The notes under the pieces: model-generated
Told to the model about the DNA's origin: nothing
What the model saw: only the letters and a program-made list of their open reading frames with translations
Database searches by the model: none
In this document: piece by piece, positions 13,630 through 40,171 of the stretch
Layout: the number at the start of each line of letters is the position of its first letter
Numbering within the stretch: the stretch's first letter is position 1
Virus record (IMG/VR): IMGVR_UViG_3300025073_000006
Length of the DNA stretch: 64,000 nucleotides
From: a virus
Direction: 5' to 3' (one strand)
Program-made: the position numbers and the translations under genes

Positions 13630-16600
13630 TTACGGGTTATCGGCGCGCTTCAGTTCCCGCTTGTCGGCGCCCGCCTTCCCCGCCGCCCGCTGCGTGTCGC
13701 GGCGGCGAAGTTCCTGGGCTGTGTCGACGAGGATCGGCTTGGCGATGAAGAAGCCCACGAGTTCGTCGCCGGGGGTGCGGCCGACGCGTGGACCCTCCAA
13801 CGTCTCCCGGATGTAGGGGTGCGTCTTCCCGGGCGTCAACCCCAGCGCCTCGCGGGTCGCCAGCGTGCCCCGCACCAGGCGCTCGACGGGGCCGTGGTCG
13901 AAGGAGCGATCCAGCGCCTGCATCGTGGAGATTCCGCGCCCCATCCCAGGCAGGGCGTGGCCGAGGTTCTGAATCCCCCACCACCGCAGCTCGTTCCCTT
14001 GCCCCACGACCCAGCGGTAGGGGATGTCAACGTCGTACCGCTTCGCCGGGTCGGGTTCATCCACGGGCCGCACGCCCAGGAAGTCGTCGACGATCAGGCC
14101 GCCCGTGAGCGCGCGGTCCAGAGCGATGAACCAGGGCGGCACCGTGTTGAAGTTGCCGCTGTCGATGTTGTAGGAGGTCGACGGATCTACACGGGTCGCG
14201 GACACGATGGGAGCCTGCCACCAGGGCGGAAGCCGGTTGGCGACCCTCGCGGCCGCTTTGGGATCGTCGAAGGCCGACAGCGCCCAGGAGATGATCTCGC
14301 CCCACAGCGTGAAGCCATCGACCGCGGGCTGTTGGCGCGTCACGAACGCGAGGCCCAGGCGGCGCAGGGGGTCGGCCTCGACATCGACGCCGCGCACGTC
14401 CACCCGCACGCCGTCCTCGATGAAGCGGCGGTAGGCCACCATGAGCTGCCGCTCGTAGTTTTCGGGCCTGACGATCCGGTACTCGTCCTCCAGGTAGAGC
14501 TGCTGCATGTCGCGGATGAGCCGCACCTGACCCGCGACCCTGGACGGGTGGTTGAGCAGGGTCCACCAGAACAGGGTCTGGTTGGCGCGCTCGTAGGCGT
14601 AGAACAGGCTCACCTGCCGCATGACGCGCTGTTCGAAGTCGGTCATGTTGCCGTAGTCGTAGAGCGCCATGCGGGCGGCGGCAGCGGCTTCGGCCGGATC
14701 CGCGCCCTTGGCGAGGTGGTCGAAGAAGACGTGCAGGCGGCCGTAGTTGTCGATCGCGGTGTAGGCGCTGACGAGTTGCTCCTGCCACCACTCGAAGGGG
14801 AGCAGGACGTTCTCGATCCACGTCCTGTGCTCGCGCCGGATGTCGTCGGTGAGCGCGCGGGCGGACTCGGCGTGAACGAACGAGGAGTTGAGGCCGTAGC
14901 TACGTGCCATCTGTCGGAGCTGCTCGGCCGAGTAGACCCTGCCGTCCTTGGTCACCAGGACGCCCCGGCCCTCGATGGCCCGCTGTTCGCCCCAGAGCCC
15001 GATGAACACGTCCTTGACGAGCTTCTGCCTGGCCGGGTTGACCTGGGCACCGAAGACGGCGCGCAACCCGTCGCGCTGGAACCACTGCCACTGCCCGTCC
15101 AGTATGTTGCCGATGTAGCTGAAGACGTTCGGCACCAGGATACCGACGACCATGCCGACCTTGATCCGGCTGAACAGCTTAGGCACGGCGTCGAAGACGA
15201 CAAGCAGTGCGTTCTCGGCGTGAAGTGCTGCACGCGAACCCACCGCCGCACCGGGGGCGGGCTCACGAAGGGGGGCGATGGTCCCGACCACCTGGCCGGA
15301 CCTGCGCGCGGTGCCGACCGTAGCCGCCTCGTCGAGCGCCAGCTTGATCTGCTCCTGGAACATCTGCGGGACCATGATGCGGCGCCCGTCGAGGTCCATG
15401 GCCGTCCACAGCCCCTCGCCGCGCTTCCATCCCCAGCGGTCCATGAGGTCGTCGGCGTAGAGCAGCGCCGCCATGTCGGGGTGGCCGTGGAACGCGCCGG
15501 GCGGGCCAGCCAGCCGCCGCCTGTCGACGGTCGGCAGATCCTGGTGAGGGGCAGGCGGACCACGGCGGACCACGCTGCCCGTGTACTGGTCGAGCGCGGT
15601 GCTGTCGTTCCAGGCCACGCGGGCGTTGAGGGCCGCCACCACATGGTCGTAGAAGCGGTCACGCAGAGGCAGGCCGACGTCCACGTCCCGGCCGCGCTCC
15701 GGGCCGAGCAGGCCGTACTCGGCAAGTTCGTCGGCCATGCGCCCCAGGATGTCGTGGGCGCGCATCCGGACGATGGCCTCGGCGAGGGCGACGTTCGGGT
15801 CCATCTTGAACGTCCGCCGCCCCTGAACGGCGTCCTTGATGCGGCGCCAGAGTGACTTGTCCGCGAGCCCGGTCGCGCGTCCCATGCCGGCCATGATGTC
15901 GAACAGCGTGGGCGGGCGGTTGGGGAGCGGCACCTGGGGCCCGTGCTCGGGCAGCCAGCGGCCCTCATAGAAGGCCTTGTAGAGCGCGACCCGGTCGTAC
16001 CACTGGAGGGTCGCCAGGATGTTGGCTTCGCTCGACCCGGTGAGGATGATGGCGATCTCGTTGGCGCGCAGCTCGACGACGCGGACACGGTCACCCAGGC
16101 CCACGGCGATGCGGCTGACGGCGTCCTCCACGTCGAGCAGCTCGGCCGGCGCGAGGTTGACTGCCGTGCGCCCGCGGTAACTGTCGAGGATGCGGAGCGC
16201 TGCCTCTTCCTCGGGTGACAGGCCGTGACGCCAGGAGTCAAGGGCATCCTGGAGGGCCACGAGGCGGACGGGGTTGAGGATGGCGTCGACGTTCGGCGCG
16301 TCCCCCGATAGGGCCTGGTGTTGGGCAAACAGGATGTCGACGATCCCAACGTCGTGCCCGTTCCGGGCGACGGGCGGGGTGAGCTCGTTCGCGACGCCGC
16401 GCAGGCTCTCCATGATGGAGCCGACGTCCTTGAAGCCCATGCGGCTGTACCAGGGCCGCATGGCACGCTGTGCCCGCACCCCGTTGCGGACCCAGTCCTG
16501 GGCGCCGCCGAGCTCGCGCGAATGCCGCTCGACGATGTCCTGGACATGGGGGTCCGGGTAGCCGGCCATCGGGCGCTCGACGATGAACGCCTTCGTGAGC

Positions 16601-19600
16601 GTGTTCTTGAGCTTGGACGGGATGGCGCGACCCAGGACGTCGACGAACGCGGCGGCGGCGGACGGCGACACGCTGGCGGTGCGCCGGGTGCGGCGGGTTG
16701 CGGCGCCGGCCTCGACGTCCAGGGCCAGCTCCTGCAACCGGTTCACCTCGGCGAAGGTGATGGTGTCGAGGTTCGCTGCCGGGTCGAGCAGGCGCTCAGG
16801 GACCAGCGACCGGCCGTAGATGGTGGCGATGGGTTCCGACGCGAGTTGGCGGGCGTAGATGCGCAGGCCCGACTGCTGAGCGGGCGTCAGGCGCACACTG
16901 GCGTCGCCCTCCCGCGCCGTCGCCACCAGGTTGGCCGGGGTGTCGCCGAGCGCGCCCGCGAGCCGGCTCAGGGCGGCCTTGCGGACGCGGCCCAGCCTCG
17001 CCTTGGGGATGACGGTGCGCGGGGTCAACGTGACCATGTCGACGCCGATCATCCACTTACGGGCGTCCTCGACCACCATGTAGGCCGCGACCTTGCTGAC
17101 CAGCTCGTCGAGCGGGACCTGGTCGCCAACCTCGAGGCCGAGCTCCTGCAACAGCTCCTCGTCACGCACCGCGGTCCGCTTGGCCTCGCGCGCCTGTCCG
17201 GCCTTCCGGATCTTCTCCTCGACGGCGTACTCGGGCCCGGGGTCGACACGGACGATCGGGAAGTCGGGCCGTCCAGCCTCACCGATGACGACGAGGCGAC
17301 GCTGAGCCACGCCCTCGGGGCGGAGCAGGCGATCCCACGAGGCGCGAACCTCGGCGGGGAGCTCGACCTGCTGGCCCCGGAATTGCGCCCACGTCTCACG
17401 CAGGCGTTCACCGACCTCGGCGACCGCGCGCCCGAGCGCGCCCGTGGGCTGCATCCGGAGCTCGACGTAGCGACGGAAGGCGTCGGCGGCCTGGTCCATG
17501 CCGAGGCGCGTCAGCACCGGCTCGCCCGGGGTCGCGCGCAGGACGTTCTCGACGGTGAGCACGTCGGGTTCGATGCGCGTGCCGTTCATGTCCTCGACGT
17601 GGGTTTCGAGGCCGAGCGCCGTGGCGATCTGCGCGGGGCTCTCGCCAGCGTTGGCGCGCTGGTGGATGTCGTCGACCATGTGCTGGGGCAGGCTGTCGTA
17701 GTAGACGGCGAGCAGGGCGCGACCGTCCTCGCCGATGAACTCCTGGAGGAGGTGGCCGTTCTCGTGCAGGAGGGTGCGCCAGTCAGCGCCCCTGAAGAAT
17801 TCCAGGAGCCAGCGGGCGTTGCCGGGCGTGCCGGTGCCAGCGGCGCCGAAGAACTGGCCGGTGAGGGGGGCGCCCGGAGCGCGGCGGGAGTGGGTGATCC
17901 TGGGGTCACTGGTCGGCCTTTCGTTTGCGATGTCCTTGATCTGCTCTGGCTTGAACACCACGAACGAAATTGGCGCTCCCTCCGGCGACGGGTCGGTCAT
18001 GACGACGCTGTCGTAGCCCATGTGCTCGGCTGCTTTCACGAAGTCGTCTTGGTAGTTCATGTACCAGTTCTGGCTTCCCTCGTTGTGTGCGGCACGGGCC
18101 GCATCGATCTCGCGCGACCGCACCGGCATCGCCTCATCGAGCGCGGCCTTCAATGCCGGCGACTCACTAAGCAGCGTGTTCTCAATGTCGTACTCATCGA
18201 TGGCGTCGTAGTCGATGGCGTCGCGGAGGGCGTCAGGGTTGCCGACGAGTGGTTCGCCGGCCTGTTCGGCGAGGTCGTCCACCCACGCCTTGACCGCCGC
18301 GTCACTGCCGTACAACTTCGTCGCCTCGGCTGCGAGCCACTCACGGAAGTCGGAGTTCTCCATGTTGCGCATCTCGCCGTATCGGCCCAGAACTACACGC
18401 CCAGAGTCGTCATCCCAGATGGCCTCCTTCGCCACCGCCTCAAACACAGCCGGATCGTTGAAGTCGGCCGGGTTTTCCATCCGCAGGTACACCTCGTACC
18501 GACGCCCAACACCATCGCCGCCGCCCCGGTAGAAGTCAGCGGTGCGCGCATCTGGCGAGAAGAAGTAGCCGTAGGCAGTGTCCTGCTGCCTGAACTCATC
18601 AATGTTGTCGAACCGTGAGCCATGGAACGCGCGGACGATGGCGCCGCCTTCGGGGATGGCCTCGACGTCGTCGAAGTTGATGACCGGAAGACCGCGACTC
18701 CACTCCTGGAACTCCGGGGTGCTCGGGGCACGGCGACTGAACTGCGCCTGCCCCTGTTCCAGCACCGACCGCCTCATCTCGGGCGTGAGGCGGATCATGT
18801 GGACCGGATCCGCGATCCTGGTCGTCTGGGCGTAGTCGAGGCCCGCGAGGTCAGGGTCGCCGTCTTGCGCCGCCCGACTCACGTAGCTGGCGGCGTCTTG
18901 CTCGGTCCCGAATTGCGCAACGTCCTCACCCGTGGACTGCCTGAATACGTGCCAGTTTTCGGCGGGCATGTCACGAGTCAGGCCGATGTCGCCGACCTCG
19001 ACCCTCGCCCCCCACTTCGCCGCGTACTTGTTCATCCACGCGGGGAGCATCTTGTCGTAGAACCCGATCATCCCTTGGCCTCCGACCGTGAGGTCGGGGC
19101 CCTTCAGGGATCCGGACTGCTCGGGCGACGCCATGATGGCCTTCACCATGTCGCCGCCGATGACGCCCTTCATCTCGGTGGCGGACTTCGCGTCGTTGTG
19201 GACGACCCTGCCGTCCTTGATGGCCTCGATGACGATGCGGGACTCCGCGCCTGGGCCCATGCTGGCCGTTATCGCCGCCTGCTCCTTAGGGGTCAGCACA
19301 CTCCACGGCTCACCGTACTCGTCCATGGCTCGCGTCTCGCGAGCGTCGCGCCACAAGTAGGGCGACATCGGCTCTTTCCGCCACCGGATCTCGTCGACCA
19401 CCTTGCGCACCTGGTCTTCGTACCGCTTGACCTGCTGAACGCCGGTGGTCCAGGACACCGCGTCGTAGTCGTTTTCGGCGGCAAACCTCAGCATCCGCTT
19501 GAGGACCATCTCGTGCCAGGTCTTCGCGAAGGGGGCGTCTGGGACCCGGTTGGCGTTGAAGGCGTCGAACTCGTTCCTCGCCCACTCATCGCGGGCCGCC

Positions 19601-22600
19601 TCGCTGCGTTCCAACTGCCGATCCGCCATGGCGCGCAGATCATCCGGCGTCATCAGGCGGCCACCGAGGTAGAGGCCGGAGGGGACGTTCGGCGCTCCAC
19701 CAGCAAGTTCGAACCGCTGGTCGAACGCCCGACGAAGGGCGCTGATCGCCTCGCGTTTGCGGTCGAAGATATCACCGGCCGCGTCGGCCCACGCTTGCGT
19801 GTCACGCGTCCACTGTTCCACCTGCTCCGGTGGGGCGTCGCTCGGCATATTACGCGGCCGCGGCGTGGTGGTTTCGTACTGAGTGACCGCGTTGGCGGCG
19901 CTCTCGTAGGCCTCGATGGCGTCGAGTTGTGCCTGGTGCGCGGCTGTGCGCTCAGCCAGCGCGACAGTTTCCCTTGCCCGCAGCGCCTGCTCCATCTCGC
20001 CCGGCAACTCTTGTGTCTTGTACCCCTTCTCCCGCCCGGCCTGGTGCAGGTCGCTCTGCACCTCCTCGATGTGGAGGATCTTCTCGCCGTTGGGCCCCAC
20101 GCGGTCGTTGAACCGGACGTGGGCGAGGAGGTTCTCGCCTTCGCCGGAAGCGGGGAAGTGGGAGGAGCGGTACGGCGGCGGGCTTATGCGATCATCTTGC
20201 GCCTTCGCCAGTCGCAATTGCGCGTCCCTGTGCCCTTGCGGCCACACCCCGGTTTGGTTCGCGATTAACACACCCTCTTCCACTTGTCGCCTGAGGCGCG
20301 CGATCCGTAGGTCCATGTTCGCTTGCGTCATGCGTAGAAGCAACCCGCGCGGCATCTTGAACAGCAGCTCGCGGTAGTTCTCGCTGTCGCCGGACAGGAC
20401 GAGGCTGGCGTACTGTGCCGGCCCTTCCGACGGCGCGAACGTGCCATCTTGGAGCAACTCCGACACGTCGATCCGCTCGTGCTCACCGTCGCGGGTCCTG
20501 ACGTCGACGTATTCGTCCCAGTCCAGGCCGGTCCAGTTCAACGCGGCCGACTCAACCGCCGCCTCCAGTTGGGCGATCTCGTCGTCGGTCAGCCTCGCGT
20601 CCGGCACGTCCGACGTGTCTGTCGCGTCGGGTTCCGCGTCCTCAAGCGCGTCAACGGCCGCGTCGTGTTGATCATCGGCTCGCTGGATCAGGTCCTCCAG
20701 AAGCGAGCGAACCGGCTCCCACGTCGGGGAGTCACCATAGTTGTTTTCGATCGACACGGACTCGTCGAGGTAGTCCTTGGCGTTGTCGATGTCCTGCCAG
20801 CCCCTCCGTAGCGCCGCCACAGCATCCCGTCCGCGGCTCGCGGCTCGTCTCGCGTCTCGCGCCACCTTTCGTTCCACGTCGCGAGCCTTCTCGATCGCGT
20901 CTTCCATGTCCGACGGGTCGACGTTGTACCGGTCCATCAGCGCACTCGACGGCGTCCCCAGCACCACCTCCCCCAACTCGACCTTGTTCTTGTCCAGGTA
21001 CGCCAGCACCTCGGCCTTCGTGACCGTCTTCTTGCCCTCCAGGAACTCGTTGAGCCGCGTCCACTTCACCTCGTCGACCTTGACACCGGCCGGGCCAGCG
21101 AACGAGGCCACACCGCCCACACGGGCCGCGTGCGCCTCAGCCTCGGCGCCCTGGTTGAGCGGGTACGTGGCGAGCATCTTGCCGTCGCGCATCACCGGCT
21201 CGTTGCCCTTCATGACCGGCTTGCCGTCCTTCACCTCGGGGACGCGCTCCTTGACCTGCCACTTACCCAGCGCGCCACGAAGTTGGTCCGGGGTGAACCG
21301 GTCCTGCTTGAGGCCCTCGACGGCGCGGCGCAGGCCCGAGTACCAGATCGGGGCGGGGTCGACGCGGCGGCTGAACTGGGGACGCTGCCCATCAGGCCAG
21401 TAGCCCCACTCGTGAATCGAGTCCCCGTTGGTGAAGATGTCCGCCGCCTTCACCCGGGCGCTCAGGATCGTGTAATCGCCGCGCAGCGCCGATTCCCCGT
21501 GGTCCTTCGCGTAGGCCTTCGTGATGGTCACCCAGTCGCCCGGGTTGATGCGCCGCGCTTCGTTGGGCGGGGCCTGCCGTAGTCGCTCCAGCTCGGCGCC
21601 CAGGCGGTCGTACTCGCCCGGGTCGCTTGCGCCGCGCTTGAGGATCCGCGCCATCCGATGCTCGATGTCGCCGACCCGCTCTGCGTTGTCCTTCGGCACC
21701 GCGCGGTAGATGGTGACCTTGGCATCGGGCCGCCCCTTCATGGCGCGGGCTATCGCGAACGCCTGGCGGTCCAGAACCTCGTCACCGGTACCGTAGTAGC
21801 GGACACCGTTCGGCCCGTAGACATCATCTGGGTACACCACGCCGGCGCCGGTCAGGTCGTGTAGCGGCGCGCCCTCTTCTGGGCCAGTGGGCCGGTGCTC
21901 GCCAGCGTAGTCGTCCTCAGCGCGGCGGCTGAACCTGGCCCGCGTCCGCTCGCTCACGGTGTCCCCGCCCCTCACGTCGATCTCGGTCACCTCCATGTCG
22001 GCCCACTCGCCGGGCAGGGCGAGGTCAGGCAGGGGCGTCGTCGTCGCAGCCTGTTCCCGGGGCGCCATGGCCCCTGTGTCGGCCTGGGCGACCTCGGGCC
22101 TGTACCGACCCCTGAACCGCGCCAGGTCCAGCGCCGTGGCTCCGGTATACGTGGACTCCGGCAGCTCGTCCATGCCCACGCCGTCCCACGCGGCCCGATG
22201 ACCGGCCGTGACGACCTCGTCGTAGAGGCCTTCGCGGGGCGGCTCGGTGCCGAACGCGAGGGCGTCGAAGTTGCGGCGGCTGAACTGCGGCTGGCCCTCG
22301 GCGATGGACTCGCGCATGGCGTCGGTCACCGGCAGGTGGTGGACCTTCTCCGACCTGTCGTGGGCGAATGATGTGTCCTTGGCGATGGGGACCTGAATGT
22401 CCGTCATCCCAGGTTTCGCGTCCCACTTCGCCGCGTACCGCTTGAGGAACCCCGGGATCATGCCGTCGTACAGGTGTTCGGCCCATTTGCCGCCGATCTT
22501 GAGGTCGAGCCCGCTGATGGACGGGTAGCCTTGGCTCTCGTCCTCCTGGACGAGGTCGTAGTTGATGCGCTCCTCAGCGCCTGCGCGATCAACGAACCGC

Positions 22601-25600
22601 TCGGGCGCGAAGTCCGGGTGGTTCATGTCCAGCGTGTAGTCGCCGTTCGTGTTGATGATCGCGAAGGCGTCCGGATCGTCAGGGTGCTCGACGACCTCGA
22701 AGAGGCTGTTGCGGTCGTACTCGCGCCGCTTCACCTCCTCACGCAGTTTCGCTCCCGGTTTCTCACCGATGTACTCGTCGATCTCGTCGATGCCCACGGT
22801 TTTGTTGATGACCGTCTTGCCATCGTGGTCGTAGGCCAGAAGGGTTTCGCCATTCGGGTCGTAGGCGACCTCGCGCACCCGCTTCGCCAAGTCGTAGCGG
22901 TCCTGCTGCGTCTTCCCGGTCGTCCACGTCACGCCGTCATAGCCGTCCTCGACGGCCATTCGCAGCGCCACCTTCATCGTGAGCTCGTGCCAGTCCTGGG
23001 GAAAGGGGGTGGGGGGCACGCGCTCACTGTTCTTCACGGCGATTTCGCGCTGCATGTCCAGGCGTTCGCGGTTGAGCACCCTCGCCCCGTAGGATGGTGC
23101 CTCGTCGCGTCCGACTGTTCCCTTGCCGACCTTGACCTCGCGGCCATCGGGGTGGCTGACGATCCACTGGTACTCGGTCTCAGCGACGGAAAGGTCTTCT
23201 GGTTGAACCTCGACAGGAAGCCCGGTGTCGGCCTCGTCGCCGCGCACGCCCTTCTTCCGCACGTCCGCCGCCCAGTCCGACTGCACCTCCTCAACGTGCA
23301 GTAGCCGCTCGCCCTTGGGGCCGAGGCGGTCGTTGACGCGGAGGTGGGCGAGGAGGTTCTCACTCATGCCGCTGAAGTGGGGAGCCTGGTATGTCGGTTG
23401 CTGGTCGCGCCACTGGTTCTCACGGTCGCTGTTCACCCGTCCGAGGGCGTCGGCGATGGCGGCTTCACGGGTCGGGTGCAGCCCGTTCCACGGCCGGGCG
23501 TGGATCTGTCCCGGAGGCGTGATGCCCCACTGCCGGGACTCGGGCTGGTTCCGGTCGACGATCGGTTCGTAGCCCTCTGGCAGCGTGGTCAGCGGTTCGG
23601 GGGGCGTCCCTCCTGGGTTGAGGCGCAGCAGCACCTCCCGGTAGTTCTCGCCGCCCGGAAGAACGTGGGCGTCGTACTGCGGCTTCGTGATGGCACCGTA
23701 TGCGAGTTCCACTTCACGGCGCGCGTCCTGCCATTCGCTCGACGCGAGCAGGTAGTCCGTGAGCGCCTCCTCGAAGGCATACGCCTCTACATACTTGTTC
23801 AGGCGGTGCAGCAGGTCAGAGACCTCGCTGGGGCCGATCCTGGTCCCGTTGTTGAGGTCGATCATCGGCTGGGCGCCGTCCATGTAGACGCCCATGATTC
23901 GCGTGTCCTGCTGGCTCGGGTAGATCGCGATGCCCTCGACCGCGCTGCGCACCTTCGCCTCTGCCGCCACCTTCCGCCGATGAACCTCCTGCATCGCGGT
24001 CTTGGCGGCCTCGGCGCGAGGGCTCTTGCCGCCCAGCACCTTCTCCTCGATCTCCACGCGGTTCGACTTGACGAACGCCCGGACCTCCTCCCGGGTCACC
24101 ACGCCCCTTCCCGCCGCCCAGGCTTCGATGCCCAACCAGTCGAGTTCGGACTGCTTGACGCCCGGCCGCTTCTTCAGGCTGGCGACCAGCGACCGGCCCT
24201 TCATCTGCTTGGCGGCACCGAAGGCGTCGTCGACGCTGCGCTCGACCGCTGAGTAGAAGGTGTCCTGGGCGCGGCGGGAGAACAGGGCCGGGCCATACTC
24301 CACGTCGGCCTCGGCATAGAACCGCTCCCACTCGGCCCGCAGCTCGGGATCGGCGGCCATCAGGCGGGTGGCGATCTCGCCCTCCCAGAACCGCCGGTCG
24401 TGCGCAGGGTCGCGCATGAACCCGGGCTCGAGGCCGGCCGCGCGCTCGATGTCGGCGAGAATGTCAGCGGTGCCTATGTTCACGCTCGGCCCAACGTCGC
24501 TGCCCCACTCGTGAAGCGCCTTCAGCAAAGCGGGCCCGCTGACGCCGTCCGTCACCGGCATGGCGGCGATGGCCTCGTTGGTGCGCTGCAACCAACGGTC
24601 GTACTCGGGGCCACGGCGAGAGTACAGGATGCGTGGGTCGCCGGGGTCGAAGGTGCCCCGGTTGCTGATCGACTTGATCTGCGTGGGCTCGAATGCCGCC
24701 ACCACCATCGGGTTGCGCACGGTGAACTTGCCGAGTTGTTCGGCACTTGACGCGACGATGAGGCCATCATGCCCGGCGGCAATCTGCTTCTCGCGCCACG
24801 TCGACCACCACGCCGTGTCGCCGCCGTGGGCCTCGCGAAGCGAATTCCACTTCCCCTGCGTCAACACCAGAGGATTCGCGATCTTGAGATAGACCGGCAT
24901 CGTGCTGTCGCCGAACATGGAGGCGAACTCGCCGTCATCGGTGAACCAGAACCCCACCTTTGACGGCCCCTTGCCGGACTTCGCCCTGTCGAATGCGTCG
25001 ATATCTGCGGCGTCGGTTCCGTGGTACACCACCAGCGGCTGTCCCTTGTCGTCCACCACCTTGCTGTCGCCGAACCACCGCTTGAACCACGGCGAGTCCG
25101 TCTTGAGGCTGGTCCAGGCATCGCGGGCTCGCGCGAAGGGATCCTCGGCGGCCGCGTAGGCGATGATGGAGGCGTCCCCACCCAGCGCCGTCCGCGCCGC
25201 CTTGAACGTCGCCCCGGTCGATACCACGTTGTCGACCAGGAACACCCGGCCCTCGGGGACTGTGGCGTTCTCGCGGAGCCGCATCGTCATCTCGCTGGCG
25301 AGCATGTCGGGGCCGCCGGACACCTTGCGGTCGTAGCTCCGGGCCCTGGCCTCGCCCGTGAGCACGTCGGCCACAGTCGCCCCGGACCGCTCGGCGATGG
25401 CCTGGGCGAGCGCGAGGTTGACGGTCGTGTCGCCCTTCGACGACGGCACCGGCACCAGGACGGCGCCCTTCGGCACACGCGGGGCCAGCAAGTCGGCCGC
25501 CGCGTCGATGCTCTCGGGCGAGCCGTTCTTGATGGCGTGCGCGACCGTGCGGCCCTCGTTGTACGGGACGCCGATGATGGCGTCGTCGGGCAGTTCGGCG

Positions 25601-28600
25601 GCGTCGGCCCGCTTGCTGAACCTCGGGCTCGCCGCGACCCCGCCCGTCTCCTCGAACACGCCCTTCCGCGCGAGCCCGGCCTGCTGCCTGAGCGAGGCCA
25701 CGGCGAGCGCCTGGATGTCGGCCTCGGTGAGGTCCAGGTACTTCCGCAGCGTCCCGAACGTCCGGTAGATCCATGCCCGGATCTGTGCCAGCAGGCGCCG
25801 CACCAGGGGCGTGTCGGGGTGGAACTCGACGAGGTAGGCCAGCCGCTCGCGCCGCACCGCCAGGTCCCGAGCCGGGCCAGGGTCTCCATCGACGCCAGCC
25901 TCGGCCGTGCGCGCCACCTCGGCGGCGAGGACCGTGTTCTTCTTGAGCAGCGCGTCCACCCGGTCGATCAGCGCCAGTTCGGCCGCCTTACCACCGAGCA
26001 TCGTCGCCATGCCGGCGTGAACACCGACCTCGTGGAGCAGGACGCGGGCCACCTCGCCCTCGGACATCTCGCGCACGTTGAGGTAGGTCTTGCCCTCGTG
26101 AAACACGCCCTTGACGCCGCGCATGTCCGACGACTTGAGCCCATCCGGCAGGGTGTCGAGGTCGTCGACAAGGACCACCTGCTCGGCCTCGAGCAACGCC
26201 TGGGCGTCTTGGCCGAACCGCTCGGTGATGATGGCGCGGGCCTGCTCGGCGGACTCCATGCGAGGTCCGAACTCCCAGGGCCGGTTGCGCGCGACGAAGC
26301 CGATGCCTCGACGCTGCTCGGCGAGGCCCATCCTCCCCGGCTGAACCGGCCCCTGCACGTCGGCCACACGGAACTGCACGTCGTCGAAGTGCCCTGCCAG
26401 CGACGTGATCTCGCCCGCCTCCAGCCGCCTCCACGCCGTCACCTCGTCGTAGGCCAGCATCATGCGGGCGGTGTCGTCGTCGATGATGCCGGTGCGGACC
26501 ATCTCCTCGAAGGCGTTCAGCCTCTCGGCGTAGCCCTGGGACGCCCGCATCTCCAACGACTCGGGGTCGACTTTGTCAAGCCGGGCCCGCCAGTTGTCGA
26601 TGGTCTGGCTGCGGGCCACCTTCGCCCGCTCGCCGAACTCGGCCAGCGTCTTGCGGACCGTCGCCTCGTCCTGGCCGGTGAGGTGCCGGATCAGGGTGGT
26701 GGCGTTCTCGCGCTGCGCCTTCGACATGACGTCGAGCGGGTTCATGCCCTTGCGCACGGCGTCCCGCATGACCTTGGCGGTGACGTGGTTGGCGGCGTCG
26801 AGGGGGTCGCGGATGGTGATCTTCGCCCGTCCGGCGGCGTCCTCGGCGTCGAGGAGGCGCCCGATCTGGACGGCCTCGGGAGCGAGCCCTGCCCATGCCC
26901 CCTCCAGCGCAGCCGTCATGCCCGCCCCGCGCAGATCGCGGTACAGTCCCGCGCCAACCCAGCCGCGACGGATCCCGGAGCCGAGGCCACGCAGCGCGAT
27001 GTCCTCGCCGGGGAACACGAAGTCGGCGATGATCCCGGAGGCGTTCAGGAACTTCCACTGCCAGGAGTCCTCGGCGAGGCCCATCCCGCGCCCGATGTTC
27101 TGCATCCCGAACATCCAGCCGGTTTCGCCCGTCTCGGTGCCCGCCAGAACGCGGGCGGTCCAGCCAGCCGACTCGAAGTCGCGCTGCGGCACGTAGTCGG
27201 ACGGGCCCCACCGCTGAAGCCCCCAGTCGACCCCTGCCAGGACCACCTCCTCAGCCATCGCCGAGGGCACACCGAAGGGGACGCGCATGGCCCAGCCGAA
27301 CGTCGTCTCGCCCCGGGCGCTCATGCTCACGGCCCCAAGGAACTCCTCGGCGTAGTCGAGCGCAGCGCCACCCGTCCGCTCGTAGGCCTCCCGGTTCGCG
27401 TCCACGCCGGCCTTCATCGAGTCGACGGTGATGGCCTGCTCGAGCGTGGCCTTGGGCAGGTCTGCCAGCGTGGCGCGCCGCCAGAACCGATTCCACACGG
27501 CGGCGACGGCCTCGTCGCGGTCGGCATCCGGCCCCTTCTTGCCCGCCGCCCGCAACGTCGGGTCGCTCGTGGCGTGGATGCCGTCCAGGTCGGCGATGAG
27601 TTCGAGCACGAGCGGGGAGGCGTCCTCGCCATCACGACGACCATCGGCCACGACGCGGGGCATCGTCGGCGCCTCGCCACCCACCCACACCCCCGACGGC
27701 AGGTTGCGGATCTCCAACGCGGGGAACAGCGGCGCCAGGTCCGCCGTCGTCTCGGCCGCCTCAATAATTTCCGCGTTCGTGAGCAGGTCGTTGTGCCGCG
27801 ACCCGTCGCGCTGGAGCTGTTCGTAGGCCTCCCGCGCGTCCTCGGGCAGCAACTTCGCCACGACCGGCGAGACGGGGCCCTCGACGGCGCGCACCAGGTC
27901 CCGGACGGCCTTGGGCGCCATCACGTTGGGCAGGAAACCCCATTCGGGATCCGCGTCTGCCGCGACCTCGCCCGCCACGGTGATCGTGCGCAGCTCGACA
28001 GGCTTGAGCCCCTCCTTGATCTCGGCCAGCGCCTCGTCCTTCCGGGGGTGGTTCCACGGCGCGATGGGCTCCTCGCCACGCGCCCGTCTCGCCATCCCCT
28101 CTTCTGAGTCGAGGATGCTGCTCCAGGTGTCGCGGATGACGCTCGCGATGGCCGATCCCTCGGGGATTTCTGCGCCCTCGGGCGGTTCGAGGCGATCCCA
28201 TGTGGCCCTTTTGATGGCGGCGAGTACGGCGCGGGGGCCGTCCCGGAGATTGTCCTCGTAGTCGGCCGCCCTCTCGATGCCGGCCGCCGTTGCCTTCTCC
28301 GCGGTCCACACCTCGCCTTCCGGCCGCCCGGTTTTCACCATGCCCGGCGCCATCGCACGCAGGGCCACATACCCGGCGTTGTCGCGCGGTGTCCCCTTGG
28401 CCTCGAAGGCGTCGAGCAGGAAGCCTGGCAGCGTCTCCGCGCCCTCAGCGTAGCTGATGTCGCGCTGAATCCGCTCCCACTCCTCACGCCTGACTGTCTC
28501 CTCGTCCAGGCTGCGGTCGGATTCGAGGCGCGTCTTCACCCTGGCCTCGGCGTAGTCTTCCAGCGCCGCCCTCAACTCGGGCTCGGACTTCGCGATGGGC

Positions 28601-28821
28601 GGGTCGCCGGGCGCCTCCTGCCGTTCGATGGGGCTGAAGTCGTCATCGTCGTCATCGTCGTCGTCGACGCCCACGTCAAGGGGCGCGACCGCGGCCCGAT
28701 CCATGGGTTCGTCGATCGGCTCGGCGCGCATCCGGTCGACCATCGCCTCAGCCTCGGAGCGAGGGAGCTTCGTGCGGGCCATGAGGTCGCGGATCGTGCG
28801 CTCGCGGTCGGTCGATGCCAT
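13630..28821 (-). CDS. Giant polyvalent virion (ejection) protein, 5,063 aa
   Basis: Single uninterrupted ORF. HEVGVH (26017-26034), ComF-like PRTase (VFLVDNVVSTGATF, 25204-25245), two ART-like modules (YHG 25018-25026, FHG 18619-27), duplicated module with H[VI]EEVQSD (23272-98, 20047-73), HENGH (17752-66), poly-Asp run (28639-65), C-terminal region with TM-like segment. Confidence 0.9.
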   Translation of the reverse strand: MASTDRERTIRDLMARTKLPRSEAEAMVDRMRAEPIDEPMDRAAVAPLDVGVDDDDDDDDDFSPIERQEAPGDPPIAKSEPELRAALEDYAEARVKTRLESDRSLDEETVRREEWERIQRDISYAEGAETLPGFLLDAFEAKGTPRDNAGYVALRAMAPGMVKTGRPEGEVWTAEKATAAGIERAADYEDNLRDGPRAVLAAIKRATWDRLEPPEGAEIPEGSAIASVIRDTWSSILDSEEGMARRARGEEPIAPWNHPRKDEALAEIKEGLKPVELRTITVAGEVAADADPEWGFLPNVMAPKAVRDLVRAVEGPVSPVVAKLLPEDAREAYEQLQRDGSRHNDLLTNAEIIEAAETTADLAPLFPALEIRNLPSGVWVGGEAPTMPRVVADGRRDGEDASPLVLELIADLDGIHATSDPTLRAAGKKGPDADRDEAVAAVWNRFWRRATLADLPKATLEQAITVDSMKAGVDANREAYERTGGAALDYAEEFLGAVSMSARGETTFGWAMRVPFGVPSAMAEEVVLAGVDWGLQRWGPSDYVPQRDFESAGWTARVLAGTETGETGWMFGMQNIGRGMGLAEDSWQWKFLNASGIIADFVFPGEDIALRGLGSGIRRGWVGAGLYRDLRGAGMTAALEGAWAGLAPEAVQIGRLLDAEDAAGRAKITIRDPLDAANHVTAKVMRDAVRKGMNPLDVMSKAQRENATTLIRHLTGQDEATVRKTLAEFGERAKVARSQTIDNWRARLDKVDPESLEMRASQGYAERLNAFEEMVRTGIIDDDTARMMLAYDEVTAWRRLEAGEITSLAGHFDDVQFRVADVQGPVQPGRMGLAEQRRGIGFVARNRPWEFGPRMESAEQARAIITERFGQDAQALLEAEQVVLVDDLDTLPDGLKSSDMRGVKGVFHEGKTYLNVREMSEGEVARVLLHEVGVHAGMATMLGGKAAELALIDRVDALLKKNTVLAAEVARTAEAGVDGDPGPARDLAVRRERLAYLVEFHPDTPLVRRLLAQIRAWIYRTFGTLRKYLDLTEADIQALAVASLRQQAGLARKGVFEETGGVAASPRFSKRADAAELPDDAIIGVPYNEGRTVAHAIKNGSPESIDAAADLLAPRVPKGAVLVPVPSSKGDTTVNLALAQAIAERSGATVADVLTGEARARSYDRKVSGGPDMLASEMTMRLRENATVPEGRVFLVDNVVSTGATFKAARTALGGDASIIAYAAAEDPFARARDAWTSLKTDSPWFKRWFGDSKVVDDKGQPLVVYHGTDAADIDAFDRAKSGKGPSKVGFWFTDDGEFASMFGDSTMPVYLKIANPLVLTQGKWNSLREAHGGDTAWWSTWREKQIAAGHDGLIVASSAEQLGKFTVRNPMVVAAFEPTQIKSISNRGTFDPGDPRILYSRRGPEYDRWLQRTNEAIAAMPVTDGVSGPALLKALHEWGSDVGPSVNIGTADILADIERAAGLEPGFMRDPAHDRRFWEGEIATRLMAADPELRAEWERFYAEADVEYGPALFSRRAQDTFYSAVERSVDDAFGAAKQMKGRSLVASLKKRPGVKQSELDWLGIEAWAAGRGVVTREEVRAFVKSNRVEIEEKVLGGKSPRAEAAKTAMQEVHRRKVAAEAKVRSAVEGIAIYPSQQDTRIMGVYMDGAQPMIDLNNGTRIGPSEVSDLLHRLNKYVEAYAFEEALTDYLLASSEWQDARREVELAYGAITKPQYDAHVLPGGENYREVLLRLNPGGTPPEPLTTLPEGYEPIVDRNQPESRQWGITPPGQIHARPWNGLHPTREAAIADALGRVNSDRENQWRDQQPTYQAPHFSGMSENLLAHLRVNDRLGPKGERLLHVEEVQSDWAADVRKKGVRGDEADTGLPVEVQPEDLSVAETEYQWIVSHPDGREVKVGKGTVGRDEAPSYGARVLNRERLDMQREIAVKNSERVPPTPFPQDWHELTMKVALRMAVEDGYDGVTWTTGKTQQDRYDLAKRVREVAYDPNGETLLAYDHDGKTVINKTVGIDEIDEYIGEKPGAKLREEVKRREYDRNSLFEVVEHPDDPDAFAIINTNGDYTLDMNHPDFAPERFVDRAGAEERINYDLVQEDESQGYPSISGLDLKIGGKWAEHLYDGMIPGFLKRYAAKWDAKPGMTDIQVPIAKDTSFAHDRSEKVHHLPVTDAMRESIAEGQPQFSRRNFDALAFGTEPPREGLYDEVVTAGHRAAWDGVGMDELPESTYTGATALDLARFRGRYRPEVAQADTGAMAPREQAATTTPLPDLALPGEWADMEVTEIDVRGGDTVSERTRARFSRRAEDDYAGEHRPTGPEEGAPLHDLTGAGVVYPDDVYGPNGVRYYGTGDEVLDRQAFAIARAMKGRPDAKVTIYRAVPKDNAERVGDIEHRMARILKRGASDPGEYDRLGAELERLRQAPPNEARRINPGDWVTITKAYAKDHGESALRGDYTILSARVKAADIFTNGDSIHEWGYWPDGQRPQFSRRVDPAPIWYSGLRRAVEGLKQDRFTPDQLRGALGKWQVKERVPEVKDGKPVMKGNEPVMRDGKMLATYPLNQGAEAEAHAARVGGVASFAGPAGVKVDEVKWTRLNEFLEGKKTVTKAEVLAYLDKNKVELGEVVLGTPSSALMDRYNVDPSDMEDAIEKARDVERKVARDARRAASRGRDAVAALRRGWQDIDNAKDYLDESVSIENNYGDSPTWEPVRSLLEDLIQRADDQHDAAVDALEDAEPDATDTSDVPDARLTDDEIAQLEAAVESAALNWTGLDWDEYVDVRTRDGEHERIDVSELLQDGTFAPSEGPAQYASLVLSGDSENYRELLFKMPRGLLLRMTQANMDLRIARLRRQVEEGVLIANQTGVWPQGHRDAQLRLAKAQDDRISPPPYRSSHFPASGEGENLLAHVRFNDRVGPNGEKILHIEEVQSDLHQAGREKGYKTQELPGEMEQALRARETVALAERTAAHQAQLDAIEAYESAANAVTQYETTTPRPRNMPSDAPPEQVEQWTRDTQAWADAAGDIFDRKREAISALRRAFDQRFELAGGAPNVPSGLYLGGRLMTPDDLRAMADRQLERSEAARDEWARNEFDAFNANRVPDAPFAKTWHEMVLKRMLRFAAENDYDAVSWTTGVQQVKRYEDQVRKVVDEIRWRKEPMSPYLWRDARETRAMDEYGEPWSVLTPKEQAAITASMGPGAESRIVIEAIKDGRVVHNDAKSATEMKGVIGGDMVKAIMASPEQSGSLKGPDLTVGGQGMIGFYDKMLPAWMNKYAAKWGARVEVGDIGLTRDMPAENWHVFRQSTGEDVAQFGTEQDAASYVSRAAQDGDPDLAGLDYAQTTRIADPVHMIRLTPEMRRSVLEQGQAQFSRRAPSTPEFQEWSRGLPVINFDDVEAIPEGGAIVRAFHGSRFDNIDEFRQQDTAYGYFFSPDARTADFYRGGGDGVGRRYEVYLRMENPADFNDPAVFEAVAKEAIWDDDSGRVVLGRYGEMRNMENSDFREWLAAEATKLYGSDAAVKAWVDDLAEQAGEPLVGNPDALRDAIDYDAIDEYDIENTLLSESPALKAALDEAMPVRSREIDAARAAHNEGSQNWYMNYQDDFVKAAEHMGYDSVVMTDPSPEGAPISFVVFKPEQIKDIANERPTSDPRITHSRRAPGAPLTGQFFGAAGTGTPGNARWLLEFFRGADWRTLLHENGHLLQEFIGEDGRALLAVYYDSLPQHMVDDIHQRANAGESPAQIATALGLETHVEDMNGTRIEPDVLTVENVLRATPGEPVLTRLGMDQAADAFRRYVELRMQPTGALGRAVAEVGERLRETWAQFRGQQVELPAEVRASWDRLLRPEGVAQRRLVVIGEAGRPDFPIVRVDPGPEYAVEEKIRKAGQAREAKRTAVRDEELLQELGLEVGDQVPLDELVSKVAAYMVVEDARKWMIGVDMVTLTPRTVIPKARLGRVRKAALSRLAGALGDTPANLVATAREGDASVRLTPAQQSGLRIYARQLASEPIATIYGRSLVPERLLDPAANLDTITFAEVNRLQELALDVEAGAATRRTRRTASVSPSAAAAFVDVLGRAIPSKLKNTLTKAFIVERPMAGYPDPHVQDIVERHSRELGGAQDWVRNGVRAQRAMRPWYSRMGFKDVGSIMESLRGVANELTPPVARNGHDVGIVDILFAQHQALSGDAPNVDAILNPVRLVALQDALDSWRHGLSPEEEAALRILDSYRGRTAVNLAPAELLDVEDAVSRIAVGLGDRVRVVELRANEIAIILTGSSEANILATLQWYDRVALYKAFYEGRWLPEHGPQVPLPNRPPTLFDIMAGMGRATGLADKSLWRRIKDAVQGRRTFKMDPNVALAEAIVRMRAHDILGRMADELAEYGLLGPERGRDVDVGLPLRDRFYDHVVAALNARVAWNDSTALDQYTGSVVRRGPPAPHQDLPTVDRRRLAGPPGAFHGHPDMAALLYADDLMDRWGWKRGEGLWTAMDLDGRRIMVPQMFQEQIKLALDEAATVGTARRSGQVVGTIAPLREPAPGAAVGSRAALHAENALLVVFDAVPKLFSRIKVGMVVGILVPNVFSYIGNILDGQWQWFQRDGLRAVFGAQVNPARQKLVKDVFIGLWGEQRAIEGRGVLVTKDGRVYSAEQLRQMARSYGLNSSFVHAESARALTDDIRREHRTWIENVLLPFEWWQEQLVSAYTAIDNYGRLHVFFDHLAKGADPAEAAAAARMALYDYGNMTDFEQRVMRQVSLFYAYERANQTLFWWTLLNHPSRVAGQVRLIRDMQQLYLEDEYRIVRPENYERQLMVAYRRFIEDGVRVDVRGVDVEADPLRRLGLAFVTRQQPAVDGFTLWGEIISWALSAFDDPKAAARVANRLPPWWQAPIVSATRVDPSTSYNIDSGNFNTVPPWFIALDRALTGGLIVDDFLGVRPVDEPDPAKRYDVDIPYRWVVGQGNELRWWGIQNLGHALPGMGRGISTMQALDRSFDHGPVERLVRGTLATREALGLTPGKTHPYIRETLEGPRVGRTPGDELVGFFIAKPILVDTAQELRRRDTQRAAGKAGADKRELKRADNP
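17925..18640 (-). other. ART-like module 2 inside the giant protein
   Basis: VRAFHGSRFDNIDEF....GYFFSPD...ADFY...YEVYLRMENP...GYDSVVM....SFVVFKPEQIKDIAN. Confidence 0.45.
24660..25035 (-). other. ART-like module 1 (ART-PolyVal-like pattern) inside the giant protein
   Basis: VVYHGT..ADIDAFD....GFWFTDD...ASMFG..VYLKIANP...GHDGLIV....VVAAFEPTQIKSISN. Same pattern as module 2. Confidence 0.45.
25145..25470 (-). other. ComF/type-I phosphoribosyltransferase-like domain inside the giant protein
   Basis: VLVPVPSSKG...LALAQAIAERSG......R.......M.........EGRVFLVDNVVSTGATFKAARTAL. The PRPP-loop-like acidic-hydrophobic stretch followed by STGAT is typical of type I PRTases. Confidence 0.6.
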
Positions 28822-32509: not shown

Positions 32510-32911
32510 TCAGCCGCCGAACACGCCGCCATACCACGAGTCGAACTGGCCCCCGCCCGCGGCCCGGAGCATGGGGTCGTTGCCGCCACTCGCTGCCGCG
32601 ACGGGCCTCTTGAACGCGACCGCCTCAGCCTCCTTGGCGAGCCGGTTCTGCTCGTAGGTGGCCTGCCGCGCCAGCCTGTCGCGCTTCGCCTGGGCGGCCT
32701 CAGCCTCGTTGTAGGCGTCCTTGGCGCGCTTGGCCCCGAGGAGCCCGCCCGCGACGGCCCCGGCGACGGCGCCGACGACGCCACCCACAACGGTCCCGAT
32801 GGGCCCCGCCGCGGTTCCCACGGTCGCGCCGAGCGCCGCACCCTGCCCGGCACCGCTCAGCGCGCCCTGCGTGGCTCCTGCCCGTGCTGCCTCCTGTTCT
32901 TCCGTCGGCAT
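32510..32911 (-). CDS. Glycine-zipper membrane protein (133 aa)
   Basis: AGGAGG upstream of the ATG. GxxxG-rich hydrophobic core GPIGTVVGGVVGAVAGAVAGGLLGA. Confidence 0.65.
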   Translation of the reverse strand: MPTEEQEAARAGATQGALSGAGQGAALGATVGTAAGPIGTVVGGVVGAVAGAVAGGLLGAKRAKDAYNEAEAAQAKRDRLARQATYEQNRLAKEAEAVAFKRPVAAASGGNDPMLRAAGGGQFDSWYGGVFGG

Positions 32912-33830: not shown

Positions 33831-34163
33831 GTGATTCACTACCTGCTTGTGGCGGTTGTTCTGACGGCGTGCGACGACGCGGCCGACGAGGTGGAAGTCG
33901 AGGTCGTCGAGGAGTGCCCGACGTTCGAGGCTCGGGCGAACCGGTGTCCCAACGGCGACCCGGACTGCTGCGAGGCGGCCGGATTCGATGACTGCGGGTG
34001 GGGCATGTTCCCGGTCGCAGTGAGTCACGATCCGGACAGCGACTGCCAGCGCGCCTACTGTGCGGCGTACTCGGACAACGGGGCGGGGTGCTGCTCGAGC
34101 TCCAGCTACAACGACTACTTCTACAATTGCGACTGCGTGGGGTTCCACTACGAGGGCGAGTAG
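33831..34163 (+). CDS. Cys-rich acidic lipoprotein (moron)
   Basis: GTG 33831 follows GGAGG. Signal peptide with lipobox VIHYLLVAVVLTAC. The 97-aa mature part has 12 Cys. Only plus-strand gene inside the minus-strand structural block. Confidence 0.7.
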   Translation: MIHYLLVAVVLTACDDAADEVEVEVVEECPTFEARANRCPNGDPDCCEAAGFDDCGWGMFPVAVSHDPDSDCQRAYCAAYSDNGAGCCSSSSYNDYFYNCDCVGFHYEGE

Positions 34164-34193
34164 GATCATCGGTACACCACGCGCACGATGATC
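34164..34193. terminator. 8-bp inverted repeat GATCATCG..CGATGATC at the convergent gene junction
   Basis: Stem 34164-34171 pairs with 34186-34193 around a 14-nt loop. Starts 1 nt after the lipoprotein stop and overlaps the 3' end of minus gene 34166..34855. Confidence 0.3.
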
Positions 34194-34855
34194 GCACGGG
34201 CGCGGACCCAGGCGAACTTCCATAACCTGGCGGTTCCGCCGTTGTGGATCATGTAGCAAGCCACGCCGAAGGAATGACGCCCACGGGTGATGCCGGTCCA
34301 GCGTCCCTCCAAGAAGTGCCATTGGCGGTATGCGTCGTTTGTGGCCACCGTGGTGCCGGTGTTGTAGATGCGGCGCGCCCCGCCGGTCCACGCCGTAGCG
34401 GAGAAACTCTCATTGGGATCACGGAAAAGGGCGAACCTGGCTGCCTCGTTTGCGCCCGCCGCGGCAGTTCCCTCTTGCTCGTAGGCGTGAAAGCACGCCC
34501 GCACGATGACCTTGGCCGTGCTCTCAGTGGTCGACGGCTGCACGTCGACGGTGCGCCACAGGCCGGGAATGGGTGTCCAGGCGTTCTGGAGCACGTCGTC
34601 GGCGATGACAAACCCCTCGAGCCTGTCGTCCGTCACGGTGTTGTGGTTGATCTCGCATGTCTGCATCACGGCGCGTTGGGGTGTGGGGATGAAGTCGGGC
34701 CGGATGACGTTGGCGCTGCTCACGAACGGGGTGGCGTCGTAGTCGGCCGCCACGATGCCGCCATTGAGCCACGTCTCGACCTCGTCGACGCGGGACAGCA
34801 GGCCAGCAGCGGTGAGGGTGTCGCCACCTGCGTAGGCGGTGAGGGTGACGGGCAT
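34166..34855 (-). CDS. Virion/tail structural protein (229 aa)
   Basis: ATG 34855 shares one nt with the upstream TAA and is in frame with track ORF 34166..34942. Confidence 0.7.
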   Translation of the reverse strand: MPVTLTAYAGGDTLTAAGLLSRVDEVETWLNGGIVAADYDATPFVSSANVIRPDFIPTPQRAVMQTCEINHNTVTDDRLEGFVIADDVLQNAWTPIPGLWRTVDVQPSTTESTAKVIVRACFHAYEQEGTAAAGANEAARFALFRDPNESFSATAWTGGARRIYNTGTTVATNDAYRQWHFLEGRWTGITRGRHSFGVACYMIHNGGTARLWKFAWVRARAIIVRVVYR

Positions 34856-35448
34856 TAGCGGAGGATCCTCTCGACGTAAAACGTCACGTCCTGGATGTCG
34901 ATCTGCACGGCCCCAATCGACCACGCGTAGAGTGCATACCACCGCTTATCTGTCGTGCTACCAGTGGTGTCGCGGGTGCTCATTCCGCCGCTAAACCATT
35001 TGTCGTCAATGCCCGCGTAGGTGCGCTGCGTCTGGTCCAACTGCGCAAACACCCCAATGCCGACCGCTCCGTCGTCGGAGTACCACAGCGAGAACTCGTG
35101 GTCATCGGCGCACTTATGTTCAAACACGCAGCGGACGATCGTTTCGTAATCCGCGTCGTCGCCAATGAAGAAGAATCCGATCTCGATATTGACGCCGCCG
35201 ATTTGTACCGGGACCGGAAACGCTGACACCACGGTACCGGCTGCATCGTCGGCGTAGACGCGGGGCACCGTATCCATGCCGTCGTTCACGGCGTCGACAG
35301 CAATGTTCCGTCGGTCAATCCCCTCCTGGGCGATGTTGACGGCGCCGATGTCGCCGCTCTGCGTGTTCCACGCAGTCTGCGTGGTGTTGAGGGCGGCGAT
35401 CTCGCCGTCGTCGCGCTTCAGGATCTCGGTGACGGTGACGCGTGCCAT
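34855..35448 (-). CDS. Virion/tail structural protein (197 aa)
   Basis: ATG 35448 shares one nt with the upstream TGA and is in frame with track ORF 34855..35463. Confidence 0.7.
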   Translation of the reverse strand: MARVTVTEILKRDDGEIAALNTTQTAWNTQSGDIGAVNIAQEGIDRRNIAVDAVNDGMDTVPRVYADDAAGTVVSAFPVPVQIGGVNIEIGFFFIGDDADYETIVRCVFEHKCADDHEFSLWYSDDGAVGIGVFAQLDQTQRTYAGIDDKWFSGGMSTRDTTGSTTDKRWYALYAWSIGAVQIDIQDVTFYVERILR

Positions 35449-38188: not shown

Positions 38189-38197
38189 GGGCGCTTC

Positions 38198-39508: not shown

Positions 39509-39598
39509 CAAGACACTCCAGACGAAGGCGCCCGGCGCCCCGCGGAGGACGAGGTCGCCGGGCGCGGCGAGGACCAGCCCGAGGGGGCCGGCACAGGA

Positions 39599-40099: not shown

Positions 40100-40171
40100 T
40101 GGGGTCGACTCCGAGATGAAGGGGATGGAGAGGGTTCGCGCCGACCGTCACGCGACGGTCGGCGCTGGAGA

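Follow-up and report, generated by a model that had tools for sequence, protein, structure and literature searches.

The 64,000-nucleotide DNA stretch of IMG/VR virus record IMGVR_UViG_3300025073_000006 (hereafter the window) is, judging by its sequence, that of a phage, and encodes on its minus strand a giant protein of 5,063 residues (13630..28821) in which a short peptide recurs eight times at the borders between modules, perhaps as the recognition site of a peptidase-like module embedded in the same chain. The gene, identified from the open reading frame list and its translation, is the largest open reading frame of the window, has a third-codon-position G+C content of 0.89 in DNA that is ~70% G+C, and is found where the structural gene block ends. 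Elsewhere the window encodes a large terminase (46513-48132), an internal-virion-protein-like gene (36014-38188) and a lysin (32510-32911), together with a primase/helicase, a helicase, an exonuclease and a DNA methyltransferase. Because the giant protein matches the Pfam domain ART-PolyVal (PF18760) twice (E=4.9e-23 for copy 1 and 7.7e-14 for copy 2, both above the curated cut-off), we assign it to the 'polyvalent proteins' that Iyer et al. (2017; PMC5512222) described from phages and conjugative elements, with which it has in common its giant multi-domain make-up, ART-PolyVal domains and an HExxH peptidase-like module. At least nine homology blocks can be told apart along its 5,063 residues, and many unrelated domains are combined, as in polyvalent proteins. 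When all of its segments were searched against Pfam, the sole matches at E values of up to 5-10 were to ART-PolyVal and, below threshold, to Pribosyltran.

A preliminary description of the window had listed eight matches to the pattern [FYH]S[RK]R in the giant protein and suggested comparing that number with shuffled sequence. There are exactly eight, beginning at residues 1068, 1400, 1514, 2180, 2297, 2483, 3361 and 3644, and their DNA coordinates were also correct; composition predicts 0.16 matches, and among 20,000 shuffles the largest count was 4, reached twice. FSRR by itself accounts for five of the matches (0.047 would be expected) and is the commonest non-homopolymer tetrapeptide of the giant protein, and the pattern has no match in the window's other predicted proteins (12,388 residues). 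The serine codons at the eight sites are AGC (four times), AGT, TCT and TCC (twice), drawn from both the AGY and the TCN families, and no DNA identity is shared between sites outside the 12 nucleotides. Because the codons differ and flanking identity is lacking, the repeat is kept at the level of protein and is not a DNA repeat, and we rule out a DNA-level repeat or recombination signal. The tetrapeptide is under protein-level selection. Following its RR or KR is alanine at five sites and glycine, asparagine or valine at the others.

To relate the sites to modules we used the borders of BLAST high-scoring segment pairs (HSPs) between the giant protein and a comparison set of 119 homologous giant proteins. 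Site 1 (FSKR, residues 1068-1071, 25609..25620; all features of the giant protein lie on the minus strand) separates an HExxxH module from a phosphoribosyltransferase (PRTase)-like module and has 11 HSP termini within ±20 residues. The PRTase-like segment and ART-PolyVal copy 1 together occupy residues 1072-1399 (24625..25608; Pribosyltran at E=0.017 only, below the cut-off), and site 2 (YSRR, 1400-1403, 24613..24624) falls in the conserved tail of this ART-PolyVal copy (..QIKSISNRGTFDPGDPRILYSRR), with 164 HSP termini in the same distance. Directly after site 3 (FSRR, 1514-1517, 24271..24282; 34 HSP starts in residues 1501-1525) comes copy 1 of what we call the large module (residues 1518-2179, 22285..24270), the end of which (..AMRESIAEGQPQFSRR) is site 4 (FSRR, 2180-2183, 22273..22284); homolog alignments stop 0-3 residues away from it, the subject reading ..GQPLF[SQ].. 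there. Sites 5 (FSRR, 2297-2300, 21922..21933) and 6 (FSRR, 2483-2486, 21364..21375) stand before and after a unit that we designate YRAVP..GDWVT; the homologs of this unit end ..EWGYxP without the motif, and the motif at site 6 is therefore an addition after the unit. Site 6 also precedes large module copy 2 (residues 2487-3360, 18742..21363, delimited by homolog alignments), at whose end lies site 7 (FSRR, 3361-3364, 18730..18741), followed by ART-PolyVal copy 2 (residues 3365-3643, 17893..18729), which additionally gives weak PARP/tankyrase fold matches. Site 8 (HSRR, 3644-3647, 17881..17892) lies in the tail of that copy, 41 residues before the histidine of an HExxH motif.

The claim that every recognizable unit lies between two sites was borne out in that HSP starts and ends gather at all eight: each site has at least three HSP termini within ±20 residues (P≈0.03 against random placement), and for most homologs the alignment of the large module breaks off 0-3 residues away from the motif. 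Although identity between the two large-module copies is limited to 27-47% in local patches, each of them finishes Q-x-Q-F-S-R-R. This module, with the signature FYSxLxRAIE .. ENYRE .. EEVQSD .. PFxxxWHELxLKRxLRxAAExGYDxxxWTTG .. GGxGMxxFYD .. ITPxMR, is found in ~80 of the 119 homologs and has no Pfam match. With AlphaFold2, from an alignment of 15 sequences, we modelled residues 3050-3700 (mean predicted local distance difference test (pLDDT) score of 62), a stretch that includes two of the eight sites, 7 and 8. In this model the FSRR of site 7 (model residues 312-315) lies in a coil spanning 308-315 between two helices, and the HSRR of site 8 (model residues 595-598) lies in coil after the last strand of the ART, both with pLDDT below 50. 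The two modelled sites are thus in predicted flexible coil.

With respect to conservation at module borders in homologs, which the preliminary description had proposed to examine, the literal motif proved to be rare and a position-aligned junction motif proved to be conserved, each lineage having a dialect of its own. Across the 119 homologs [FYH]S[RK]R occurs 25 times against 14 expected, 7 of the 25 coming from the window's own protein, so that in most homologs it is at background. As the literal pattern is not conserved, the dialects came out solely by position-aligned comparison. The tail of ART-PolyVal has the logo F-D-P-x-[ND]-P-D-I-[RL]-[FY]-[SQ] (n=291), to which sites 1400 and 3644 conform and which identifies them as the conserved C-terminal tail of that domain; the large module of homologs ends ..ITPxMRxxVxxGQPLF[SQ]. 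Past the aromatic residue the sequence differs between proteins and is alike within one protein, and the serine position may hold Q, A, E, K, N or D instead. For example, the large-module end and the ART tail read LFEDEKP and LQEDEKP in P0082, QFAPRSK and RFAPRKA in P0098, LFSRQRA and RFSRQRV in P0008, SFQVQPP and SHQVQPS in P0063, and LFQPDPD and LYQPEPG in P0079. On this comparative evidence, many polyvalent proteins have in common a general junction motif, [RLQ]-[FY]-[SQ...]-x-x-x, of which FSRR is the local dialect.

We quantified the within-protein likeness by a permutation test on the BLOSUM similarity of residues +1 to +4 past the aromatic at the large-module end and the ART tail of the same protein. 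For all pairs the score was 6.31, against a null of 0.15±0.57 (0 of 2000 permutations reached the observed value). Paralogous ART units downstream of both junctions could be rejected as the source of this signal, which persisted when neither junction was followed by an ART (4.67 against -0.43±0.75; 0 of 1000 permutations) and when the downstream 150 residues were dissimilar (6.40 against 0.24±0.63 for 57 pairs from 41 proteins; 0 of 2000 permutations). Control positions -12 to -9 gave no within-protein signal. The private pentapeptides also recur elsewhere in their own proteins (pooled, 158 occurrences where 72.8 would be expected); in P0098 there are six additional xAPR sites, as compared with an expectation of 0.33. 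A loose regular expression for the large-module end was discarded, as its matches were mostly false, and BLAST-mapped positions were used instead. The comparative data suggest a co-evolving reader encoded by the element itself, most plausibly the embedded HExxH module.

Among the homologs, many (P0002-P0012 and others) have 5-12 tandem ART-PolyVal domains, each starting ..TPEFxxWFGxSKVVD and ending with the tail motif, and in P0092 (1,790 residues) each ART is bracketed by PRFSI before and DIRFSV after. In p60 of the cultured Pseudomonas phage F116, the ART is flanked by QAFSRT and DILFSRS. This protein (NC_006552, 4444-9393; 1,649 residues) has two HExxH modules, one ART-PolyVal and an LPD38-like C-terminal region, and near its N-terminus, 38 residues past the start methionine, it reads ..PVQYSFAG.., which resembles the DIRFSFAG junctions found elsewhere before a module of the HE[IV]QHAIQ type. 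The C-terminus of F116 p59, considered as a natural terminus at a junction, was uninformative.

Of the two embedded HExxH motifs that had been named as candidate processors, only one is present: HENGH at residues 3686-3690 (DNA 17752-17766), within a zincin-like module (residues ~3648-3910, 17092..17880) that is our candidate processing peptidase. The other, at residue 930, is HEVGVH, that is, HExxxH (residues 930-935, DNA 26017-26034), and belongs to a separate module (residues 851-1067, 25621..26271) that has no Pfam match and whose LHEVG[EV]HA is kept in eight of the 119 homologs (P0007, P0011, P0019, P0022, P0026, P0036, P0103 and P0112); this may be a second module that binds metal or acts as a peptidase. 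In clustering, the HENGH module groups with 42 homolog modules whose HExxH is of the type A[DN]xSTFLHExGHxFLE. In an alignment of 31 sequences the H, E and H are invariant and a downstream glutamate is near-invariant, and the family signature can be extended to A[DN]xSTFLHExGHxFLE ... HEKFARGFExYLxEGKAPS ... VFDRMLATDEEI. A Pfam scan of these 31 sequences at E≤0.001 returned no match. A profile of the module retrieved, at E≤1e-3 and among 1.84 billion proteins, 12,739 representatives (clusters at 50% identity), nearly all of them 2,000-3,500 residues long. The family thus seems to be a very large one that has not been catalogued.

We assembled an independent set from the best 148 of these representatives (P0132-P0279), which were not chosen via ART and contain 149 modules. 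In the interval 22-55 residues upstream of HExxH, [LIMVF]xQ is present for 89% of the modules, against 35% of control windows, and [LIMVF][FYHNM]Q for 75%, against 7.5%; the glutamine falls at -29 to -38 from HExxH, with a mode of -33. The junction motif thus nearly always precedes the zincin-like module, at a fixed distance. Among the 119 homologs, the Q dialect (LFQ, LYQ) is found in 26 of 33 zincin-module proteins and is rare in proteins that do not have the module, and on a large-module tree, itself poorly resolved, the pairing turns up in several branches. The giant protein of the window and P0025, P0041 and P0095 form a divergent zincin-module subgroup with an S dialect.

The interpretation we favor is that the eight [F/Y/H]-S-[R/K]-R peptides are sites where a phage polyprotein is cleaved or recognized by the embedded zincin-like module, and we give it about an even chance of being correct. 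A polyprotein cut at its junctions would be the simplest account because the peptide occupies accessible linkers, is repeated after unrelated modules, is private to a lineage, and stands at a fixed distance before HExxH. The earlier description of the sites as processing or linker sites is upheld insofar as they are inter-module junctions and, in the two modelled cases, lie in predicted coil; the zincin activity, its role as reader, proteolysis as the outcome, and the bond that is cut are what we infer from sequence comparison. According to this interpretation, the giant protein, whose gene adjoins the internal-virion-protein-like gene where the structural block ends, would be delivered by the virion as a series of effector modules (the PRTase-like segment plus ART, the large module twice, the YRAVP unit, the second ART and two short units) strung on flexible linkers that bear the motif. 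The zincin-like module, starting right after site 8, would recognize the peptide and cut the chain, either while still inside the capsid or once ejected into the host. Our guess for the scissile bond is that just before the aromatic (P1' = F/Y), and F/Y at P1' is typical of zincin specificity. Each lineage would have a dialect of its own, FSRR here and LFQ, RFSRQR, KSADR, FAPR or LxEDEKP elsewhere, that co-evolves with the peptidase.

Cleavage at all eight sites would be expected to give an N-terminal piece of ~117 kDa (residues 1-~1067); seven central pieces of ~12-96 kDa, namely, in order, the PRTase-like segment plus ART (~36 kDa), a small unit (~12 kDa), large module 1 (~73 kDa), another small unit (~12 kDa), the YRAVP unit (~20 kDa), large module 2 (~96 kDa) and the second ART (~31 kDa); and a C-terminal piece of ~155 kDa that includes the zincin-like module and so would keep the peptidase.

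Virion packaging of the giant protein, and its entry into the host along with the DNA, are suggested by the position of its gene and by analogy with gp47 of phage phi24B, a related giant LPD38 protein found in abundance in virions and regarded as an ejection protein (10.64898/2026.04.10.717836). Like phi24B, the Bcep22-like phages are related podoviruses, and they encode a comparable giant 'DarB-like' protein with LPD38 (PMC9144972). In the literature on the giant proteins of the Bcep22-like, phi24B and F116 types we found nothing on cleavage.

Several points weigh against the polyprotein interpretation. The first concern the module itself: the window has Asp3776 at the position of the near-invariant glutamate, the profile of the module has no sequence match in PDB, and an AlphaFold2 model of it (of moderate quality, pLDDT 64.5) has no Foldseek match in PDB, so that, with no match by Pfam, PDB sequence or fold, the label 'zincin' is one assigned from motifs alone. 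Others concern how far the sites extend. In the independent set, [LIMVF][FY]Q occurs 423 times against 275.5 in shuffles, an excess of about one per protein, and many relatives may therefore have only the site that flanks the zincin-like module. The S dialect of the window is a minority among zincin-module proteins, the ART tail motif is kept even where the ART is the last domain, and the counts for the zincin/Q-dialect association and for co-variation are uncorrected for phylogeny. In addition, our literature search returned no experimental termini for the giant protein or any relative, and N4 vRNAP, ArdC and TraC1, which are polyvalent and have peptidase domains, are reportedly delivered unprocessed (PMC5512222).

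The likeliest alternative is that the linker peptides are docking peptides, comparable to capsid-targeting or cargo-loading peptides, that bind a phage partner such as the capsid interior, the portal, a scaffold or a chaperone and so serve to load the head, or to thread the protein out of it, module by module. A tail motif that is kept after a C-terminal ART, where there is nothing to release, would suit docking, as would a motif in predicted flexible coil and the packaging of related giant proteins in virions, and a lineage-specific dialect implies a co-evolving partner whether or not that partner is a protease. However, binding to the capsid would predict neither that the motif should lie at a fixed distance upstream of the HExxH module in 75-89% of 149 independent cases nor that the dialect tracks the presence of that module, and we identified no candidate binding partner. 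We consider docking unlikely.

We regard as decidedly improbable that the cutting is done by another protease, be it a phage head-maturation protease, the HExxxH module (residues 851-1067) or a host enzyme that recognizes dibasic RR followed by a small residue. The RR or KR of the window followed by A (five times), G, N or V does look dibasic, the HExxxH motif provides a second conserved metal-binding-like site, and head proteases of the T4 and phiKZ type cut internal proteins at short consensus sites (L/I-x-E for T4 gp21, S/A/G-x-E for phiKZ gp175). The dibasic feature is not general, though, since other lineages have Q, SPK, APR or EDEK, and a host protease would leave the protein-specific dialects unexplained. 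The HExxxH module is present in only 8 of the 119 homologs, and among 20 neighboring proteins searched against PHROGs (10 of them also against Pfam) we found no protease family, many of them having no match of any kind. The head-protease systems resemble the polyprotein interpretation in that proteins packaged by a phage are cut at a short consensus before or during maturation; they differ in having a separate prohead protease gene, of which we found none here, and another motif, the motif described here being confined to one protein of the window.

Very improbable, in our view, is that nothing reads the peptide and that it is a structural end-cap or linker preference spread by module duplication or recombination, a leftover of cassette shuffling: the large modules and the ARTs are paralogous pairs, so that four of the eight sites could have been inherited with a module, and the ART tails are conserved far past the tetrapeptide, but the other four sites (1068, 1514, 2297 and 2483) follow unrelated modules, Q-x-Q-F-S-R-R is kept in paralogous copies that are only 27-47% identical, the codons differ between sites, co-variation holds where the flanks on both sides are non-homologous, and the modelled sites are predicted to be coil outside any fold. 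Two self-processing mechanisms were rejected. Autoproteolysis of the His-Phe-Ser (HFS) kind, as in Nup98, PIDD and ZU5 domains, likewise has Phe-Ser at the cut site and needs a folded domain around His-Phe-Ser together with the serine hydroxyl; it is excluded here, where the residue before the aromatic is R, Q, L or T and at no site His, where homologs have other residues in place of the serine, and where the two modelled sites are in coil. Ribosome skipping of the 2A type (NPG|P), for which NPDI in the ART tail was considered, lacks the G-P, and we know of no such mechanism in bacteria.

For a polyprotein cut by its own zincin-like module, the closest working analogues would seem to be the MARTX toxins and the viral polyproteins. 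In MARTX and large clostridial toxins, effectors of a giant polypeptide are freed after delivery by an embedded protease that cuts unstructured linkers at a short recurring site. Their protease is a cysteine protease that is activated by inositol hexakisphosphate and cuts after leucine, whereas the candidate here is a zincin with other sites; delivery in our case would be by a phage virion, and there is no sequence relationship between the giant protein and MARTX. Viral polyproteins are cut at Q|G by picornavirus 3C, at LQ|S/A/G by coronavirus Mpro and after dibasic sites by flavivirus NS3. They share with the proposed polyprotein a short site between functional units, a protease flanked by its own site and the co-evolution of site and protease. 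The LFQ and RR-A dialects are only superficially like their sites, and these systems belong to eukaryotic RNA viruses and use chymotrypsin-like serine or cysteine proteases, in contrast to the metallopeptidase-like module and putative cleavage in a double-stranded DNA phage.

With respect to polyvalent proteins, processing by a zincin was predicted independently by Iyer et al. (2017; PMC5512222), whose text mentions no linkers, junction motifs or cleavage-site consensus. To their account we add a recurrent junction peptide, the dialects that it has in different lineages, and the constant distance at which it precedes one zincin family; the zincin-like module of the giant protein matches no Pfam model. 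The preliminary description had stated that the motif was not known to have been described, and we likewise found no description of it in the searchable literature. The site code thus appears undescribed, processing by such peptidases having been predicted in 2017, and the junction-motif finding is a specific, testable variant of the predicted mechanism and not a new category.

Few proteins of phages and plasmids are as large or as widespread as the polyvalent proteins, and their processing has so far been proposed from the presence of peptidase domains only. From the junction peptide follow the exact termini to be expected, a candidate protease whose catalytic residues can be named, and a prediction of which dialect goes with which protease. 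It may be, in a generalization we put at somewhat under an even chance, that thousands of giant virion-delivered phage proteins are strings of effectors with a lineage-private cleavage code that co-evolves with an embedded, uncatalogued zincin family. If such a large-scale polyprotein strategy of tailed phages exists, the protein of the window, in which FSRR or a close variant stands eight times, would be among its clearest examples. Should the junction peptide be what we propose, effector boundaries could be annotated automatically in thousands of uncharacterized giant proteins, the exit of a 550-kDa protein from a podovirus-type head would be explained, and a set of orthogonal protease/site pairs would be at hand. 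F116 p60 offers a cultured system suited to the junction hypothesis.

Identical full-length gene calls of 5,063 residues are found on many public contigs (P0124, P0126). The cluster of the giant protein at 90% identity has 12 members that are at least 99.96% identical, and is hence uninformative on site conservation. Several public gene calls are shortened to 1,577-4,023 residues, either by contig ends or by later start codons. The NCBI copies (P0121-P0123) are labelled as a 'Patescibacteria group bacterium' metagenome-assembled genome, yet the contig is a phage of ~70% G+C. Near the N-terminus of the giant protein, a run of nine aspartates (DDDDDDDDD, residues 53-61, 28639-28665, minus strand) lies within an acidic leader rich in proline and glutamate. 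Finally, over part of the structural gene block (34001-40000) the G+C content falls to 0.64-0.68, against ~0.70 elsewhere, and the genes in 36014-41248 are also lower in G+C at the first codon position.

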